64,000 bases of DNA, taken from sequence record PQ871103.1. One strand, 5' to 3'. Every line of letters begins with the position of its first letter. The stretch's first letter is position 1. The notes beneath the pieces were generated by a model that saw only the letters and a list, made by a program, of their open reading frames with translations, searched no databases and was not told the origin of the DNA. A program made the translations under genes and the position numbers. Source of the stretch: Escherichia phage vB_Eco_ZCEC15. Shown in pieces: positions 10,219-56,805 of the stretch.

Positions 10219-11920
<1,702 letters not shown>

Positions 11921-39266: not shown

Positions 39267-39270
39267 CAAT

Positions 39271-39300
39271 GGGGACCTTTTGGTCCCCATATTTTTATTT
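39271..39300. terminator. bidirectional terminator between gene 54 (+) and minus-strand early genes
   Basis: GGGGACC-TTTT-GGTCCCC hairpin followed by ATATTTTTATTT. Confidence 0.8.
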
Positions 39301-39585
39301 ACGGAATGAAATAAAAGCAGCAACTGAAGCAACTAAACTGTCTTCAATATAAACTTCAATTTTTACCGGAGCTTCTGACTCAAATTTACCTGTTACTACA
39401 CCTTGGAAAATGCTTTCAGTCTGTTCTGGCTTTGAAAAATTTTCAGAAGGAAAAATTCCGAACTTTTTATCTGTTCCAAAAATTTTGATAAATTCATCAT
39501 AAACTGCTTCATTAAAAGCGTTATCAGCAGGAATAACGCCTTCAACTACAAGTTCTTGACCTAAAAAGCGTAAAGAAGATTTCAT
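39295..39585 (-). CDS. hypothetical early protein, 96 aa
   Basis: Minus-strand ORF directly downstream of a perfect early promoter (GTTTACA-N17-TATAAT) that is a 54-bp exact copy of the alc promoter/leader. Confidence 0.65.
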   Translation of the reverse strand: MKSSLRFLGQELVVEGVIPADNAFNEAVYDEFIKIFGTDKKFGIFPSENFSKPEQTESIFQGVVTGKFESEAPVKIEVYIEDSLVASVAAFISFRK

Positions 39586-39592
39586 TTTGTGT

Positions 39593-39646
39593 TCCTCATG
39601 TTATGTCAGTAAGATTATTATAACACAACACGAGGGACTTGTAAAC
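39593..39646 (-). promoter_or_regulatory. early promoter cassette copy A (GTTTACA-N17-TATAAT plus leader)
   Basis: Minus strand GTTTACAAGTCCCTCGTGTTGTGTTATAATAATCTTACTGACATAACATGAGGA; identical over 54 nt to 55161-55214. Confidence 0.8.
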
Positions 39647-41703
39647 TACATCTTGAACTTTTTAGACATTTCGTTGATGTTAACCAAAGAAGCCAAGATT
39701 TGAGAAACTTCGTTTTCCTCTTCTTTTGATTCTTCTACAAGGAATTGATTAAACCCAGCCATTGGACGAACTTCGCCAGTTTCCATTAGATGATCGCCAT
39801 CATATACCGATTCTTCTAATTGTTCAGAAGGAGGAACGATTGTGCCTTCGATTAGATACTTGTTATAAGCAGTTTCTTTCATCATGTACGTGCTTACTTT
39901 ATTAATCTTCAACAAAATTCCACGCGGTAGAATAACTTCAGCTTCTGATGGAAATCCTGATAAATGACCTGGAACGATAACTTTGATTCGCTCAGCCCCT
40001 TTAATTACCATACCTACGCTAGCTTCAGCATCTTCATTAGCATATGCAGAATGACTACCCATATGCATTAAATCTTCAGCATCAACAGAACCTTCTCCTT
40101 CACCAGAAAATACTGCGCCGGAATCATCTAGAGCCATATAGTTTTTACCATGCTCACCGAAGATATTTGGTTTAAGCGACGTGGATACGAAGTTCTTGAA
40201 ATAGAACATTTTATTTTCAATATTATGACGTAAAGTTTTAAAAGTAACTTCTTGCCCACGATAAAGCGTAGTTCCTGGAGGAAGAACTGATCCTTTGGCG
40301 AATGCAGAATCCAGCGTCTCGATGTGTTTAATAGCTCGTTCAATGTATTCTTCACGGGTAGAATCTGGTTTACCCAAGAGGAACGAGTTCATTTCAACAT
40401 ATGAATCTGCACAATAATCTTCAATTACATCAGACTCAGCCTGAGTCAGTCCTTTTGGAGTTACTTCGGTGCTTGCATATTCATACGCCTGAGCAGCAGA
40501 TGCATTAATCAATTTATAAATGCCATTCATGACAAATCGAATAATAGCTACCTTTTCGTCTGGTGTGGCTTTAGAACCTTTAACTAAATCATTGATAATT
40601 TTCTTAATAACATCAAAGCTATTAGAAATATTAATGTCAGCGAGATCGCTCAAAATTTTATCGGTTTTATAATCAAAAAATTCTTTATTCTTTAAATATT
40701 CTTGAGAACCTTGATGTGTTATATCGCTCTGCAGTCTGATAGACGGATCACGTAAACGTGCATGGGCCAATGCAATATCATTTCGGAAGCTTTCTAGTTC
40801 ATAATCGTTAGATTTAAAACGAGAAGCACTTCTCATACCACCGATAGCTCCTTTGCTGAAGTTTGAACCAATCTGAATAACGCCAGAGTTCATTGATCCT
40901 TCTGCTTTATATACCGGAACTTTAGATTCAAACTCTTGATATTTCTTGGCAGCGAAGCTATCACCCTGTAGCGAAGCATCGACAGTAGAATATTGAGCTT
41001 GCGCTGCTAATCGACGACTAATTTTAGTTTTCTGAATAACAGCTTGATCCGTGCGCTTATCATTTTCTAAAGCAACAGAAGCAGCAACAGCAACAGCTTT
41101 AGGAACAGCATTACCTGTTTTAACATCTACATAAACATCACCAACCTTTGATTCAACTTTTGTGAATAACTCAGTTGAAATAGGAGGTACACCTGGAATG
41201 TCTTCTAAATTGGCATTTTTACGGTAAACCATAATATATGCATACTTTTTATCGTAATCCCAGATTTCCTTTAAAAGAACATATCGACCTGCTCCTTTAG
41301 TACGTACTAAACGGTCAGCAATAACTTGCATCTGACGAGCAGCGCCATTTGTTTTACTTTTTAGTACGCGGAATAGGCATGCGTCAATTTTATACTGTTT
41401 CATTGTTTGAAGAGCAGTATCAAAAACCGCATTAATGACACCAATTGGATTTCCACCCAAGTTTTTAAGTTTAACTAATGATAGTTTCTCATTAACACCT
41501 ATCATTACGATATGCATCATTTTATCGCCTGGCTTAACGTTTTTATTTGTATCACCGCCAGAGGTGTATGTACAAAATCTAAATCCAGGAAGCACGCTTT
41601 CTTCACCGGCTTGAATAGCAAAAATTTGAGGTATTTTATGCTTAGGATTTAAGTTAACAACCGGCGCCGAAGCGCCGTCAAATAATTCTGTAATAAGTTC
41701 CAT
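39646..41703 (-). CDS. Alt-like ADP-ribosyltransferase, paralog 2 (685 aa)
   Basis: N-terminus MELITELFD shared with adjacent paralog; C-terminal ART-like signature: Arg (TTLYRGQ), STS (FVSTSL), Glu-x-Glu (SEAEVILPRG). Confidence 0.85.
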   Translation of the reverse strand: MELITELFDGASAPVVNLNPKHKIPQIFAIQAGEESVLPGFRFCTYTSGGDTNKNVKPGDKMMHIVMIGVNEKLSLVKLKNLGGNPIGVINAVFDTALQTMKQYKIDACLFRVLKSKTNGAARQMQVIADRLVRTKGAGRYVLLKEIWDYDKKYAYIMVYRKNANLEDIPGVPPISTELFTKVESKVGDVYVDVKTGNAVPKAVAVAASVALENDKRTDQAVIQKTKISRRLAAQAQYSTVDASLQGDSFAAKKYQEFESKVPVYKAEGSMNSGVIQIGSNFSKGAIGGMRSASRFKSNDYELESFRNDIALAHARLRDPSIRLQSDITHQGSQEYLKNKEFFDYKTDKILSDLADINISNSFDVIKKIINDLVKGSKATPDEKVAIIRFVMNGIYKLINASAAQAYEYASTEVTPKGLTQAESDVIEDYCADSYVEMNSFLLGKPDSTREEYIERAIKHIETLDSAFAKGSVLPPGTTLYRGQEVTFKTLRHNIENKMFYFKNFVSTSLKPNIFGEHGKNYMALDDSGAVFSGEGEGSVDAEDLMHMGSHSAYANEDAEASVGMVIKGAERIKVIVPGHLSGFPSEAEVILPRGILLKINKVSTYMMKETAYNKYLIEGTIVPPSEQLEESVYDGDHLMETGEVRPMAGFNQFLVEESKEEENEVSQILASLVNINEMSKKFKM

Positions 41704-41706
41704 GAT

Positions 41707-43803
41707 TTATCCTTGAACGAACTTGTAAGGCATGTTTGCAATATCTATGCAAGATGCAATAATTCCAAGAGATGATTCTACTTTTTGTTTAACATTTGAT
41801 GAAACAAATGTTGCAAAGTCAACTCTGTCTTCTATTTCAATATCATCTGTCATTGCAACTACTTCACCAGTTTCCATTAGACTGTCACCGTCATAAATTA
41901 CCGATTCGGTGAGTTCTTCTGTAGTCATAACTTCAGCTTGAATGAGTTTTGTATTATTAGATGTTGTTCCGTCATTATTAGAAGCATCAGTTATTTTATT
42001 AACTTTGACCATCAATCCGCGCGGCAGAATAACTTCAGCTTCTGTTGCTATTCCGAGACTTCCTGGATATACAACATTAACTTTATGAGCTCCATCAATT
42101 GCCCATCCTATTTGAACTTTAACGTATTCAGGATTTTCTTTATACGCTCTTATTTCATTTGGATTAATAGTTATTCCTTCTTCATTTTTATCAACTGTTA
42201 ATTCATTACGAGCTTCTGGTTCTAAAAGACCAATACCAGCATGCGTAATTCCAAAACGTCCAAAAATGATAGGAGTTAAAGAAGTAGATACAAAATTTCT
42301 GAAATAGAACACTTTATTTTTAACTAGTGCTTCGTATATAGGAGCAGTCATGCTTTGAGCACGATAAACTGTAATGCCTTCTGGTATACGGTCACCATTT
42401 TCAAAGGCTGAATCTAAATTATTTATCGCAGATTCAATTTCTTTTTCACTCATTACCTCATATCGTTCTGGATTGTAGCGACCTAAAAGAAGATTATTGA
42501 TGTCAGTATATCCTGAACCACAATACTCTCTAATGCCGCGCTTTTGTGATGGAGTATATTTAGAACCATCACGAGCAATAGTAATATCAATCATTGGACC
42601 TGCACCAATTCCAGAAAAACTATAAATCATTCTTTTGAGGAATTTAGTTTTTGCTGCGTTCCAGGAATTTTTAGTTATTTCTTCCCAGACTTCATCTGTC
42701 TGTCCTTTACGAGTTTTATTATGTTTATCAAGCCAGTTATCTTTATATTCTTCAAATAATTGATTAACAACTGTTGCGTATTTCTCTAAACATTTTATTG
42801 AAGTAGTTGGTTCATTTTTAATCGCATTAAGAATTACATCTTTAATTTTTTCAGAAACTTCATTAACCTCACTTTTTGAAAAGAATTTATAGTCATAATG
42901 AAGTTCATCTGCAGTTCCTTCAGCAATAATTTTTGCTGCCTTAGTTTTAGAAGCTAATGAATTAATTCCAAGCTTCATTTCTTCTGCTTCGGGAATTAAA
43001 GGAGCTGTAGCAGGTTTATTGAAATTAGCTGCGGTAGATTCATACTTCTGGAATAATTCACTTTCAAATCTAGAAGATTCCAATGATTGACTTTGTGCAA
43101 TTGCTCTACGGGAAATTTTAACTTTAACGATTACAGCTTGGTCAGAACGTTTATCATTTTCTAGTGCAATAGATGCTGCAATTGCCTCATTTTTAGTTAC
43201 TTGAGCTCCAGTATCTTTATTGATATAAACATCACCGACTTTCGATTCAACTTTAGTAAAGAGCTCGGTACTAATTTCTGGAACTCCTGGAATGTCTTCT
43301 AATGATACATTTTTGCGATGTATAAGAATATATGCATACTTTTTATCATAATCCCAGAGTTCCTTAAGAAGGACGTATCTGCCACCTGAGCGACTACGGA
43401 TAAGTCTATCAGCAATAACTTGAATTTGTCGAGCTTGACCAGCAGTTTTAGACTTAAGAATACGGAGCATACAGGCATCAATTTTATACTGACGCATTGT
43501 TTGCATTGCAACAGTAAAAACTGAATTGATATAATTAATTGGGCTTGGACCAAGACCTTTCAATTTAGCAATTGAACCTTTAGCAGTTAATGTAAAAGGA
43601 ACAATATGCATCATTTTATCGCCCATCTTTAAATCACGATTAGTATCACCTCCAGATGTATAGGTACATAAACGAAAGCCTGGTTGTTCAATTGCATCAT
43701 CAACATGAACTGAAAAAATTTGTGGTATTTTCTTCTTTGGATTTAAGTTTGTAATCGGAAGAGTAGTATCTTCGTCAAATAATTCTGTAATGAGTTCCAT
43801 CAT
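41707..43803 (-). CDS. alt: Alt ADP-ribosyltransferase (698 aa), head-packaged internal protein
   Basis: N-terminus (M)MELITELFD; ART signature Arg (ITVYRAQ), STS (FVSTSL), Glu-x-Glu (TEAEVILPRG); late promoter TATAAATA and hairpin upstream on minus strand; position between 54 and 30 as T4 alt. Confidence 0.88.
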   Translation of the reverse strand: MMELITELFDEDTTLPITNLNPKKKIPQIFSVHVDDAIEQPGFRLCTYTSGGDTNRDLKMGDKMMHIVPFTLTAKGSIAKLKGLGPSPINYINSVFTVAMQTMRQYKIDACMLRILKSKTAGQARQIQVIADRLIRSRSGGRYVLLKELWDYDKKYAYILIHRKNVSLEDIPGVPEISTELFTKVESKVGDVYINKDTGAQVTKNEAIAASIALENDKRSDQAVIVKVKISRRAIAQSQSLESSRFESELFQKYESTAANFNKPATAPLIPEAEEMKLGINSLASKTKAAKIIAEGTADELHYDYKFFSKSEVNEVSEKIKDVILNAIKNEPTTSIKCLEKYATVVNQLFEEYKDNWLDKHNKTRKGQTDEVWEEITKNSWNAAKTKFLKRMIYSFSGIGAGPMIDITIARDGSKYTPSQKRGIREYCGSGYTDINNLLLGRYNPERYEVMSEKEIESAINNLDSAFENGDRIPEGITVYRAQSMTAPIYEALVKNKVFYFRNFVSTSLTPIIFGRFGITHAGIGLLEPEARNELTVDKNEEGITINPNEIRAYKENPEYVKVQIGWAIDGAHKVNVVYPGSLGIATEAEVILPRGLMVKVNKITDASNNDGTTSNNTKLIQAEVMTTEELTESVIYDGDSLMETGEVVAMTDDIEIEDRVDFATFVSSNVKQKVESSLGIIASCIDIANMPYKFVQG

Positions 43804-47990: not shown

Positions 47991-48030
47991 GGTACAGGTA
48001 TATAATATCATATCCTGTACCAAAGTAAAC
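47991..48030 (-). promoter_or_regulatory. early promoter embedded in inverted repeat (PeSL-like)
   Basis: Minus strand GTTTACT-N16-TATTAT; -10 region enclosed by inverted repeat GGTACAGG/CCTGTACC. Confidence 0.7.
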
Positions 48031-48032
48031 AA

Positions 48033-48365
48033 TTATTTTACTACTTTCCAGTGCTGCATGTCAAGTTTACCAACTTTTTTCATCTTCTCAATTAAGCGTT
48101 CGGCACGTTGGCGAGCTGTAACATAATACCATTCACCCAATTCATTTTGTTCAATTTTTCCAACGATTACCGTATTCAATTCATAAATCCAACCAGTAAA
48201 GAAATTATGAACTTGAATTGTAAAGGTGAAATCTGTTCCCATACCTTCTGTTGTTTCTACTTCAATAATATCACCTTCAACTGCCATTAAGAACCACATA
48301 GTTTCATCATATTTACCGTTGAAGCATTTAGTTTTAACTGCAGCGTTCAGATTAATTGTTTTCAT
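48033..48365 (-). CDS. hypothetical protein (30.x cluster)
   Basis: 110 aa; own early promoter upstream (48374-48422). Confidence 0.6.
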   Translation of the reverse strand: MKTINLNAAVKTKCFNGKYDETMWFLMAVEGDIIEVETTEGMGTDFTFTIQVHNFFTGWIYELNTVIVGKIEQNELGEWYYVTARQRAERLIEKMKKVGKLDMQHWKVVK

Positions 48366-48373
48366 TTTATTCT

Positions 48374-48422
48374 CCTTTGTTTGTGTAAGATAATACTATC
48401 ACAAAGGAACCATACTGTAAAC
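48374..48422 (-). promoter_or_regulatory. early promoter embedded in inverted repeat (PeSL-like)
   Basis: Minus strand GTTTACA-N17-TAGTAT with flanking inverted repeat CCTTTGTG/CACAAAGG. Confidence 0.7.
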
Positions 48423-54309: not shown

Positions 54310-54659
54310 TTAGAAAGGTCCTGGATGTCTTCTGCGAACTTGTTGAAGGAGTTGTTGATTTGTTTTTCAACCAATCCTGGCTTATGAGCCACCACATCCG
54401 CCTTCTTTGCGTCTTTGCGCAGTTTTTCATTTTCACGCTCAATAGCAGCAATTGCCTCACGATTTTTATTATTCATCGCATCAATATAATTATACTGAAT
54501 TCGCAAATTATTTAATGCTAAAGCGTTTTCATTGGCCGTTTTTGTAATTTCTACAACAGACGTTTCTAATCTTTCAATTTTATTTTTTAAAATTAAAGAA
54601 GTTCCGCCCAATGCAATTACAATTAATAGCAAACCTGTTGTCGTATTACTTAATTGCAT
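54306..54659 (-). CDS. pseT.3: inner-membrane spanin (i-spanin)
   Basis: 117 aa; N-terminal hydrophobic TM segment (GLLLIVIALGGTSLIL) followed by charged helical/coiled-coil domain. Confidence 0.75.
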   Translation of the reverse strand: MQLSNTTTGLLLIVIALGGTSLILKNKIERLETSVVEITKTANENALALNNLRIQYNYIDAMNNKNREAIAAIERENEKLRKDAKKADVVAHKPGLVEKQINNSFNKFAEDIQDLSK

Positions 54660-55153
54660 AAAGTTTTAATAACCTCTACAATATCGTCTTGAGAAAGACC
54701 GTTAATTAAAATATGATGTTCAGCCGGAGATTTAGAAATTTTAAAGCATGCCTCAACATCTTCTGCCATATCTGATGCACTACGATTTGGATTACTAATT
54801 CCAAGACGATGTTTTCCCGTTAAAGGATTAACGATGATATAGCATTTACAGTTGTTAATATGAACATTAGGTTGAGTCTGATTAATGAACACATCACAAT
54901 CATATTTCGCAAGCTGATTTTCTAAAAAGACTTTCATCTCCTCAACCGCATCAGGAAGCATATCACGGGCTTGCTCAAGACGACGATTTCGATATTCTTT
55001 AATGGTCGTTTTCCGCTTGACTTGCTTAGCTAAATCTTTCTTAAGATCGGTGATATATCCAACTCGACGATTTCCTTTAAATACAGAAATCCCATCTGTA
55101 GTATCACCGTATGCTTCAACGACCATCTCAGTAGTAATAAGCTGCAAATCCAT
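54650..55153 (-). CDS. alc: Alc, inhibitor of host transcription (elongation terminator on dC-DNA)
   Basis: 167 aa, same length as T4 Alc; early promoter cassette directly upstream. Confidence 0.85.
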   Translation of the reverse strand: MDLQLITTEMVVEAYGDTTDGISVFKGNRRVGYITDLKKDLAKQVKRKTTIKEYRNRRLEQARDMLPDAVEEMKVFLENQLAKYDCDVFINQTQPNVHINNCKCYIIVNPLTGKHRLGISNPNRSASDMAEDVEACFKISKSPAEHHILINGLSQDDIVEVIKTLCN

Positions 55154-55160
55154 TATAAAG

Positions 55161-55214
55161 TCCTCATGTTATGTCAGTAAGATTATTATAACACAACACG
55201 AGGGACTTGTAAAC
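55161..55214 (-). promoter_or_regulatory. early promoter cassette copy B, upstream of alc
   Basis: 54-nt exact copy of 39593-39646, including -35, -10 and leader through the ribosome-binding region. Confidence 0.8.
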
Positions 55215-55217
55215 AGC

Positions 55218-56805
<1,588 letters not shown>

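Follow-up and report, generated by a model that had tools for sequence, protein, structure and literature searches.

A duplicated early promoter-leader unit upstream of alc in a T4-like phage carries a predicted hairpin between its promoter spacer and its ribosome-binding site

The 64,000-nucleotide stretch of Escherichia phage vB_Eco_ZCEC15 analysed here (PQ871103.1; hereafter the window) carries the same 54 bases in front of two unrelated genes, which raises the question of what this unit does and how its two copies came to be identical. The first-pass annotation had described positions 55161-55214 (copy B) as an exact duplicate of 39593-39646 (copy A), and repeat finding together with a sequence search of the window confirms it: the copies are identical at 54/54 positions and are direct repeats on the minus strand, separated by 15,568 bases. 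Read on that strand, which is the functional sense, the unit is GTTTACAAGTCCCTCGTGTTGTGTTATAATAATCTTACTGACATAACATGAGGA. Identity breaks off exactly at both of its borders, the flanking sequences being unrelated. No match of this length arose in 100 dinucleotide-preserving shuffles and no third copy with up to three mismatches is present in the window.

Each copy occupies the gap from an upstream stop codon to the next start codon. Copy B starts 3 bases past the stop codon (55218-55220) of rnlA (gene 63, RNA ligase 1; 55218..56342, minus; Pfam RNA_lig_T4_1 and T4_Rnl1_C) and ends 7 bases short of the ATG (55153) of alc, which encodes the 167-aa inhibitor of host transcription (54650..55153, minus; Pfam ALC, E = 1.4e-91). 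Copy A overlaps the final base of the stop codon (39646-39648) of a gene encoding a 685-aa Alt-like ADP-ribosyltransferase paralogue (39646..41703, minus; Pfam ADPrib_exo_Tox) and ends 7 bases before the ATG (39585) of a homologue of alt.-3, whose 96-aa product (39295..39585, minus) was identified from the T4 annotation and a match to Pfam DUF5498 (E = 1.4e-64). Both copies end in the ribosome-binding site GAGGA (55161-55165 in copy B and 39593-39597 in copy A). With the same GAGGA at the same 7-base distance from the ATG, the two unrelated genes do share identical initiation contexts, as had been noted at first pass. Around copy A, the window contains tandem full-length alt paralogues on the minus strand (39646-41703 and 41707-43803; 685 and 698 aa, ca. 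70-78% identical in patches); only remnants of the second occur in T4 (alt.-1 and alt.-2), and both are present in T2, GEP001 and SfPhi01. Between the convergent alt.-3 and gene 54, a perfect G+C-rich palindrome of 9 bp, flanked on either side by T-runs (39269-39290), is a candidate bidirectional terminator.

The repeat is not peculiar to this sequence record. The region is T4-like (Tequatrovirus), with 95-99% identity to hundreds of Tequatrovirus genomes and a best genome match of 99.4% to Escherichia phage UGKSEcP2, and a megablast search with the 54-mer returned 644 places in 426 phage records. In the reference T4 genome each of the two loci holds a copy; these differ from the window's at 2 and 3 positions and from each other at one. 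An artificial repeat created by assembly or sequencing error, against which the first-pass annotation had advised a check, can be dismissed with near certainty, since T4, T2, hundreds of phages sequenced independently (relatives with both copies number more than 400) and metagenome contigs all have the copies at the same loci. The repeat as such is ordinary; T4 itself has it, and regulatory cassettes of this kind have been described before.

Both copies contain a -35 hexamer TTTACA (55208..55213 in copy B; 39640-39645 in copy A), a 17-base spacer and a -10 hexamer TATAAT preceded by TGn (55185..55190; 39617-39622), T4 having TATAGT at the copy B site. They match 11/12 consensus positions in addition to the TG extension and are by far the best matches of the promoter scan in their regions. 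Both fit the T4-type early consensus (-35 GTTTAC(A/T), 17-base spacer, TGn and a -10 close to TATAAT) and also the TTTACW-N17-TAYWAT consensus of T4/PST early promoters (PMC4122927). Judging from these motifs, the unit is a strong sigma-70 early promoter followed by a leader of about 24 bases and GAGGA, which bears out its original description as an early promoter/leader unit directly upstream of alc. Promoter geometry would place the transcription start about 7 bases past the -10 hexamer, at 55178 in copy B and at ca. 39610 in copy A. No promoter feature is annotated at the cassette site in the T4 GenBank records. Between -40 and -60 at alc the sequence is only about 62% A+T; an A/T-rich tract lies further upstream, and this whole region is the coding 3' end of the upstream gene.

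The main feature of the unit, missed at first pass, is that the promoter spacer CCUCGUGUUGUGU is complementary to the leader segment containing the ribosome-binding site, ACAUAACAUGAGG. Folds and duplex predictions place the 5' arm of the resulting hairpin within the 17-base promoter spacer (55191..55203 in copy B; 39623-39635 in copy A) and the 3' arm at the end of the leader (55162..55174; 39594-39606). In RNA reading through from upstream, the predicted hairpin has 13-19 bp and a stability of -21 to -23 kcal/mol (-22.8 for copy B and -21.4 for copy A), with the ribosome-binding site buried in its 3' arm; z-scores are -5.6 and -4.9, respectively, and 0/200 shuffles were equally stable. The loop contains both the -10 hexamer and the inferred start site. 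From the geometry, with the arm in the spacer and so ahead of the -10 hexamer, RNA initiated at the deduced start site of the cassette promoter should lack the 5' arm; an RNA starting past the -10 hexamer folds with -1 kcal/mol and is essentially unstructured. At alc, the locus-specific flank CUU lengthens the helix to 17 pairs around one bulged C, the helix extending outward through AAGU (55204-55207), which fits alc as the native setting of the cassette. The antisense strand folds with only -14.5 and -15.8 kcal/mol, 6-8 kcal/mol weaker than the sense strand because of two G-U pairs in the stem, and this difference points to a structure in the sense RNA.

Two conventional identities for this hairpin were considered and rejected. 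A rho-independent terminator is at odds with the sequence features: the tails that follow the stem are A-rich with no U-tract (CUUUAUAAUG at alc and ACACAAAAUG at alt.-3), and the terminator scan found no terminator-like site on the minus strand at either copy, including between rnlA and alc. Nor does the unit match a curated RNA family, the lone hit in Rfam 15 being a chance microRNA at 17.6 bits against a gathering score of 135 (E = 0.44).

These features suggest a simple mode of action. In RNA reading through from rnlA (into copy B) or from the alt-like gene (into copy A), both arms would be present and the hairpin would enclose the -10 hexamer and the start site and hide the ribosome-binding site. 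RNA from the cassette's own promoter would start in the loop without the 5' arm, leave the ribosome-binding site open and be translated. Expression of the downstream gene would then depend on immediate-early transcription and be shielded from read-through of the delayed-early, middle or late periods. Translational coupling is unlikely to open the stem, since a ribosome that terminates on the upstream gene would extend no further than the outermost pairs of the hairpin. The reading that we favour, and regard as reasonably probable, is that the 54-base unit is a self-contained immediate-early cassette, derived from alc and homogenised by conversion, whose hairpin ties downstream translation to its own promoter. 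It takes the computed repeat, promoter match, predicted hairpin, covariation and population pattern, and adds to them an inferred start site, a block of translation and a biological reason for that block.

Comparison of the alc upstream regions of relatives, which had been suggested as a check, shows the design to be kept, with covariation, across genera. The rnlA-alc spacers of other genera were located by way of the Alc protein, and the same rnlA-alc layout is found in Gelderlandvirus, Karamvirus, Dhakavirus, Winklervirus, Roskildevirus and two groups of Klebsiella phages. In all these groups GTTTACA is directly followed by 9-14 bases that are perfectly complementary to the ribosome-binding region, between -22 and -5 relative to the AUG. 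The stem sequences differ among genera (e.g. UCUCCAUUUGGUU with AACCAAAUGGAGA, or UCCUCAUCAG with CUGAUGAGGA), and the hairpin design at alc thus recurs in eight Tevenvirinae lineages with stems that are different but co-varying. In the Aeromonas phages Aes508 and 31.2 (Tulanevirus and Biquartavirus), the spacer pairs not with the ribosome-binding site but with positions +3 to +21 of alc (codons 2-7), in duplexes of 17 and 11 pairs (-25.3 and -15.2 kcal/mol). Such pairing inside the coding sequence indicates that the partner of the spacer tracks the translation-start region rather than a fixed position. Mosigvirus alc has no such hairpin, its best duplex reaching only -3.7 kcal/mol, and the design is therefore dispensable. 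In the Gaprivervirus MN01, a terminator-like hairpin (AAGGGG...CCCCUU, then a U-rich tract; 161-262 of the fetched stretch) has a -35-like GTGTACA in its loop, and alc is annotated as two ORFs with a tblastn match in two pieces (248-998 of the fetched stretch), which may reflect a frameshift or a sequencing error.

The covariation was quantified in two ways. In an alignment-free swap test over ten lineages, spacers paired with their own start region at a mean of -19.1 kcal/mol versus -10.0 kcal/mol with those of other genomes, and 0/100,000 permutations reached the observed value. In a covariance-model alignment, 69.7% of the cells are paired and 6 pairs have changed on both sides, with 9/500 shuffles reaching the covariation score. 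Several helices are one to three columns out of register in both the MAFFT and the model-fitted alignments, so that the formal pair count, only moderately above the controls, understates covariation; the swap test was relied on instead. Within Tequatrovirus, pairing is retained at four of the six stem sites that vary (C to U opposite G, G to A opposite U and U to C opposite G), and two singleton stem variants (positions 12 and 18) each break a pair, as does a T19C change in UGKSEcP2. Variation of the stem within this genus is compatible with selection on the stem and statistically indistinguishable from neutral change.

The situation at alt.-3 is different. In Dhakavirus, Mosigvirus, Marfavirus, Karamvirus and Gaprivervirus, the alt.-3 promoter follows another design, a small hairpin with the loop AAGGA lying wholly within the spacer; pairing of spacer and start region amounts to only -5 to -9 kcal/mol there, and the hairpin does not involve the ribosome-binding site. 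No example of this spacer-internal design was found in the window. It also occurs upstream of Mosigvirus alc, and its 4-6 bp stems co-vary (CACCAC/GUGG, ACACAU/AUGUGU and GCAC/GUGC). The Tequatrovirus alt.-3 cassette shares 91% identity with the alc cassette of the same genus, against only 61-67% with alt.-3 cassettes from elsewhere. The reverse holds in Mosigvirus, whose alc cassette is 74-79% identical to Mosigvirus and Dhakavirus alt.-3 cassettes and only 50-68% to other alc cassettes; as the sequences are short, all these percentages are indicative only. The simplest reading of these comparisons is that whole promoter-leader modules have been swapped between the alc and alt.-3 loci, one way in Tequatrovirus and the other way in Mosigvirus. 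Conservation of the design at alc across the Tevenvirinae makes the alc version look ancestral, and the alt.-3 hairpin copy, specific to Tequatrovirus, looks like a transplant of the alc cassette. As alt.-3 does without the hairpin in other genera, its role at this locus may be incidental to the transplant.

The polymorphism of the two copies was compared in 33 copies (16 from alt.-3 and 17 from alc, the alc copy of T4 being counted twice) drawn from phage genomes, from IMG/VR and from metagenome contigs. Scans of the last two collections with exact and gapped patterns contributed 6-10 loci each, a sample on the scale of polymorphism counts and not of a large population test. Among these copies, no site is fixed differently between alt.-3 and alc, and 6 of the 13 polymorphic sites are common to both loci; most of the variation falls in the hairpin loop. 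Multi-site haplotypes, TATAGTAGACTT, TATAGTAATTTT and TATAGTAGTTTT among them, are found at both loci. The inter-locus distance is 2.1 within a genome and 2.45 between genomes, similar to the diversity of a single locus (1.9 to 2.8), copies of the same genome being only marginally closer (2.07 vs 2.45 differences, p = 0.08). In UGKSEcP2, a private T19C is present in both copies and absent from the 33 other copies, and its two copies differ at position 29. T19C itself breaks a U-A stem pair and is thus a mildly destabilising variant that seemingly spread to the second locus by conversion.

Taken together, these data suggest that ectopic gene conversion keeps the two copies nearly identical. Concerted evolution of this type is recognised by the same signs, namely that no difference between the loci is fixed, that polymorphisms are shared and that one genome has a private variant in both of its copies; here the tract is only 54 bases long and conversion is deduced from about 35 copies. 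T4 recombination is reported to need a minimum homology of about this length (Singer et al. 1982, as cited in PMC2839356). In the other sampled genomes the -10 hexamer of the alc copy is TATAGT (TACAGT in two); TATAAT occurs at alc only in the window, where it matches that of the window's own alt.-3 copy. Either conversion or two point changes would have made the window copies identical, and because of this hexamer their perfect identity probably reflects a recent conversion from copy A to copy B.

The first-pass annotation had further proposed that the copies provide homology for deletion or inversion of the intervening 15.6 kb. Inversion was rejected, since the repeats are direct and a crossover between them deletes or duplicates the interval. 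In T4, the region colinear with this interval contains gene 30 (DNA ligase), gene 31, cd, pseT, rIII and alt. The interval includes genes that are essential in T4, so that its deletion should be lethal, and a 15.6-kb duplication should exceed what headful capacity and terminal redundancy allow. Only non-crossover products should therefore survive, and conversion is what the sequences show. The use of such leaders as recombination substrates, on the other hand, is illustrated by T2 at another leader pair. T2 lacks 386 bp (window 48361 to 47975; T2 fetched stretch 11540-11760) that comprise a 30.8-like gene and the next promoter, with the junction falling in a leader of 15-16 bases common to both units, GGAGAATAAAATGAA, over which the flanking alignments overlap by 16 bases. 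From these junctions the difference is a deletion in T2, or an insertion, through presumed recombination between leader cassettes.

Other early-promoter units of the window were compared with the cassette. Six units combine a GTTTAC-type promoter with a ribosome-binding site, and in three of the six the spacer pairs with the unit's own ribosome-binding site: those of alc and alt.-3 and a third of unrelated sequence at 48365-48422 (minus). The latter was found by the covariance model and a relaxed scan and lies upstream of a gene whose product starts with MKTINL, at the position of T4 gene 30.8. Its GTTTACA is followed by a spacer in which UUCCUUUG pairs with CAAAGGAG at the ribosome-binding site (9 bp, -11.3 kcal/mol), and its -10 hexamer is TAGTAT; the whole region folds with -19.2 kcal/mol (z = -3.3). 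Two further GTTTAC promoters, with -35 starts at 48030 and 51889 (minus), have strong hairpins of -19.4 and -17.1 kcal/mol in which the spacer serves as 5' arm and pairs with a 3' arm just past the -10 hexamer, leaving the ribosome-binding site free. As modelled, these two hairpins look like the stem-loops overlapping the -10 hexamer in the PeSL cassettes described by Arbiol et al. 2010 (PMC2839356) and Comeau et al. 2014 (PMC4122927).

The PeSL cassettes suggest another explanation for the alc unit itself, namely a transcription insulator whose stem-loop attenuates or terminates incoming polymerase, or protects the 3' end of the upstream mRNA, its overlap with the ribosome-binding site being incidental. 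The layout of Arbiol et al. 2010 is indeed that of a stop codon, a promoter, a stem-loop, a ribosome-binding site and an ATG, the stem-loop often lies between -35 and -10 or over the -10, and one PeSL stem-loop cut lacZ expression about as far as a strong terminator (PMC2839356); the hairpins at 48030 and 51889, moreover, span spacer, -10 hexamer and start region and stay clear of the ribosome-binding site. Yet the stem is followed by A-rich sequence and not by a U-tract, in other genera as well as at both copies, the terminator scan of the minus strand is empty, and the translation-start region is invariably what the 3' arm covers, also in the Aeromonas phages, where the arm falls inside the coding sequence; a terminator would not need this. 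An attenuator of the PeSL type is less likely given the missing U-tract and a 3' arm that tracks the start of translation, and we hold this explanation to be unlikely.

A plainer account, that only a strong promoter and its leader were duplicated, with a functionless complementarity and a likeness due to recent duplication and purifying selection, would suit the -35, the -10 and the ribosome-binding site, which are constrained anyway, the concentration of variation in the loop and the non-significant preservation of stem pairing in Tequatrovirus. It agrees poorly with the fact that, although promoter spacers are not normally under sequence constraint, perfect complementarity over 9-14 bp persists in eight lineages whose sequences differ, with the outcome of the swap test, or with the multi-site haplotypes and the private mutation common to both loci, and seems distinctly improbable. 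Slightly more improbable still is a structure acting in DNA, either a cruciform or single-strand hairpin that modulates open-complex formation or a recombination or replication signal. The inverted repeat does enclose the -10 hexamer, and PeSL stem-loops blocked DNA sequencing reactions unless betaine was added (Arbiol et al., PMC2839356), but the stem relies on G-U pairs, which form in the sense strand only and leave the antisense fold 6-8 kcal/mol weaker, the 16 bases between its arms do not favour cruciform extrusion, and the Aeromonas versions pair across about 45-55 bases.

With respect to described systems, the cassette resembles the PeSLs in its intergenic layout from stop codon to ATG with a terminal ribosome-binding site, in its strong sigma-70-like early promoter (TTTACW, 17 bases, TAYWAT) overlapped by a stem-loop, and in being repeated in the genome as a substrate for homologous exchange, here as two copies and as alc and alt.-3 types swapped in Tequatrovirus and Mosigvirus. 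It differs in that none of the five stem-loop positions described for PeSLs has the ribosome-binding site as its 3' arm (PMC2839356, PMC4122927), and in that the PeSL stem-loop is interpreted as a terminator or attenuator whereas the cassette has neither a U-tract nor a terminator-like call. PeSLs moreover occur in clusters within hyperplastic regions, and insertions, deletions and mini-circles have been linked to them, whereas the two copies here are 15.6 kb apart and show gene conversion rather than deletion.

A close mechanistic parallel is found in the hairpins of the T4 genes e, soc, 49 and I-TevI (Uzan and Miller 2010, PMC3014915, section 29), in which the ribosome-binding site and/or the AUG is held in a helix on RNA initiated upstream, and the promoter lies inside the structure so that the gene's own transcripts lack the 5' strand and are translated, a behaviour that is only predicted for the cassette. 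The promoters of these genes, however, are late (TATAAATA) and translation is limited to late infection, whereas the cassette promoter is an early sigma-70 promoter and the 5' strand of its hairpin is the -35/-10 spacer itself. The logic would thus be reversed in the cassette, with translation only from immediate-early transcripts. As its promoter is early and not late, the cassette is a variant of the e/soc/49/I-TevI class and not a member of it. The genes alc, alt.-3 and 30.8 are absent from the examples in the review of Uzan and Miller (PMC3014915), and an earlier mention in older T4 literature is possible. What is less ordinary here is a conserved, co-varying hairpin linking an early promoter to its own ribosome-binding site, which appears to have moved between loci and to have been homogenised by conversion.

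Alc is among the first phage proteins to act and terminates host transcription on cytosine-containing DNA (PMC2988021). In the literature found, the confinement of its synthesis to the first minutes is not linked to an RNA structure. If the proposed mechanism is true, the hairpin would be a cis-acting timer that requires no protein factor: the gene would be translated only while its own early promoter fires, despite later transcription from upstream, a hypothesis directly testable in the best-studied phage. The paradigm of the lysozyme gene, a hairpin with an internal late promoter, would then extend to early promoters with the opposite timing. If the hairpin works as proposed, it also means for T4-like therapeutic phages that an insert engineered upstream of such a cassette would not drive the downstream gene. 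Tentatively, and as a possibility rather than an expectation, T-even phages may possess a general, hitherto undescribed class of early promoters in which the -35/-10 spacer is the strand opposing the ribosome-binding site; alc, 30.8 and the Tequatrovirus alt.-3 would then be translated only from their own promoters and be turned off when early promoters are silenced, irrespective of any ongoing read-through, and the units would move as modules by conversion, carrying their timing rule with them. If the cassette was indeed transplanted and homogenised, regulatory logic, and not genes alone, would be a mobile module in T-even genomes.
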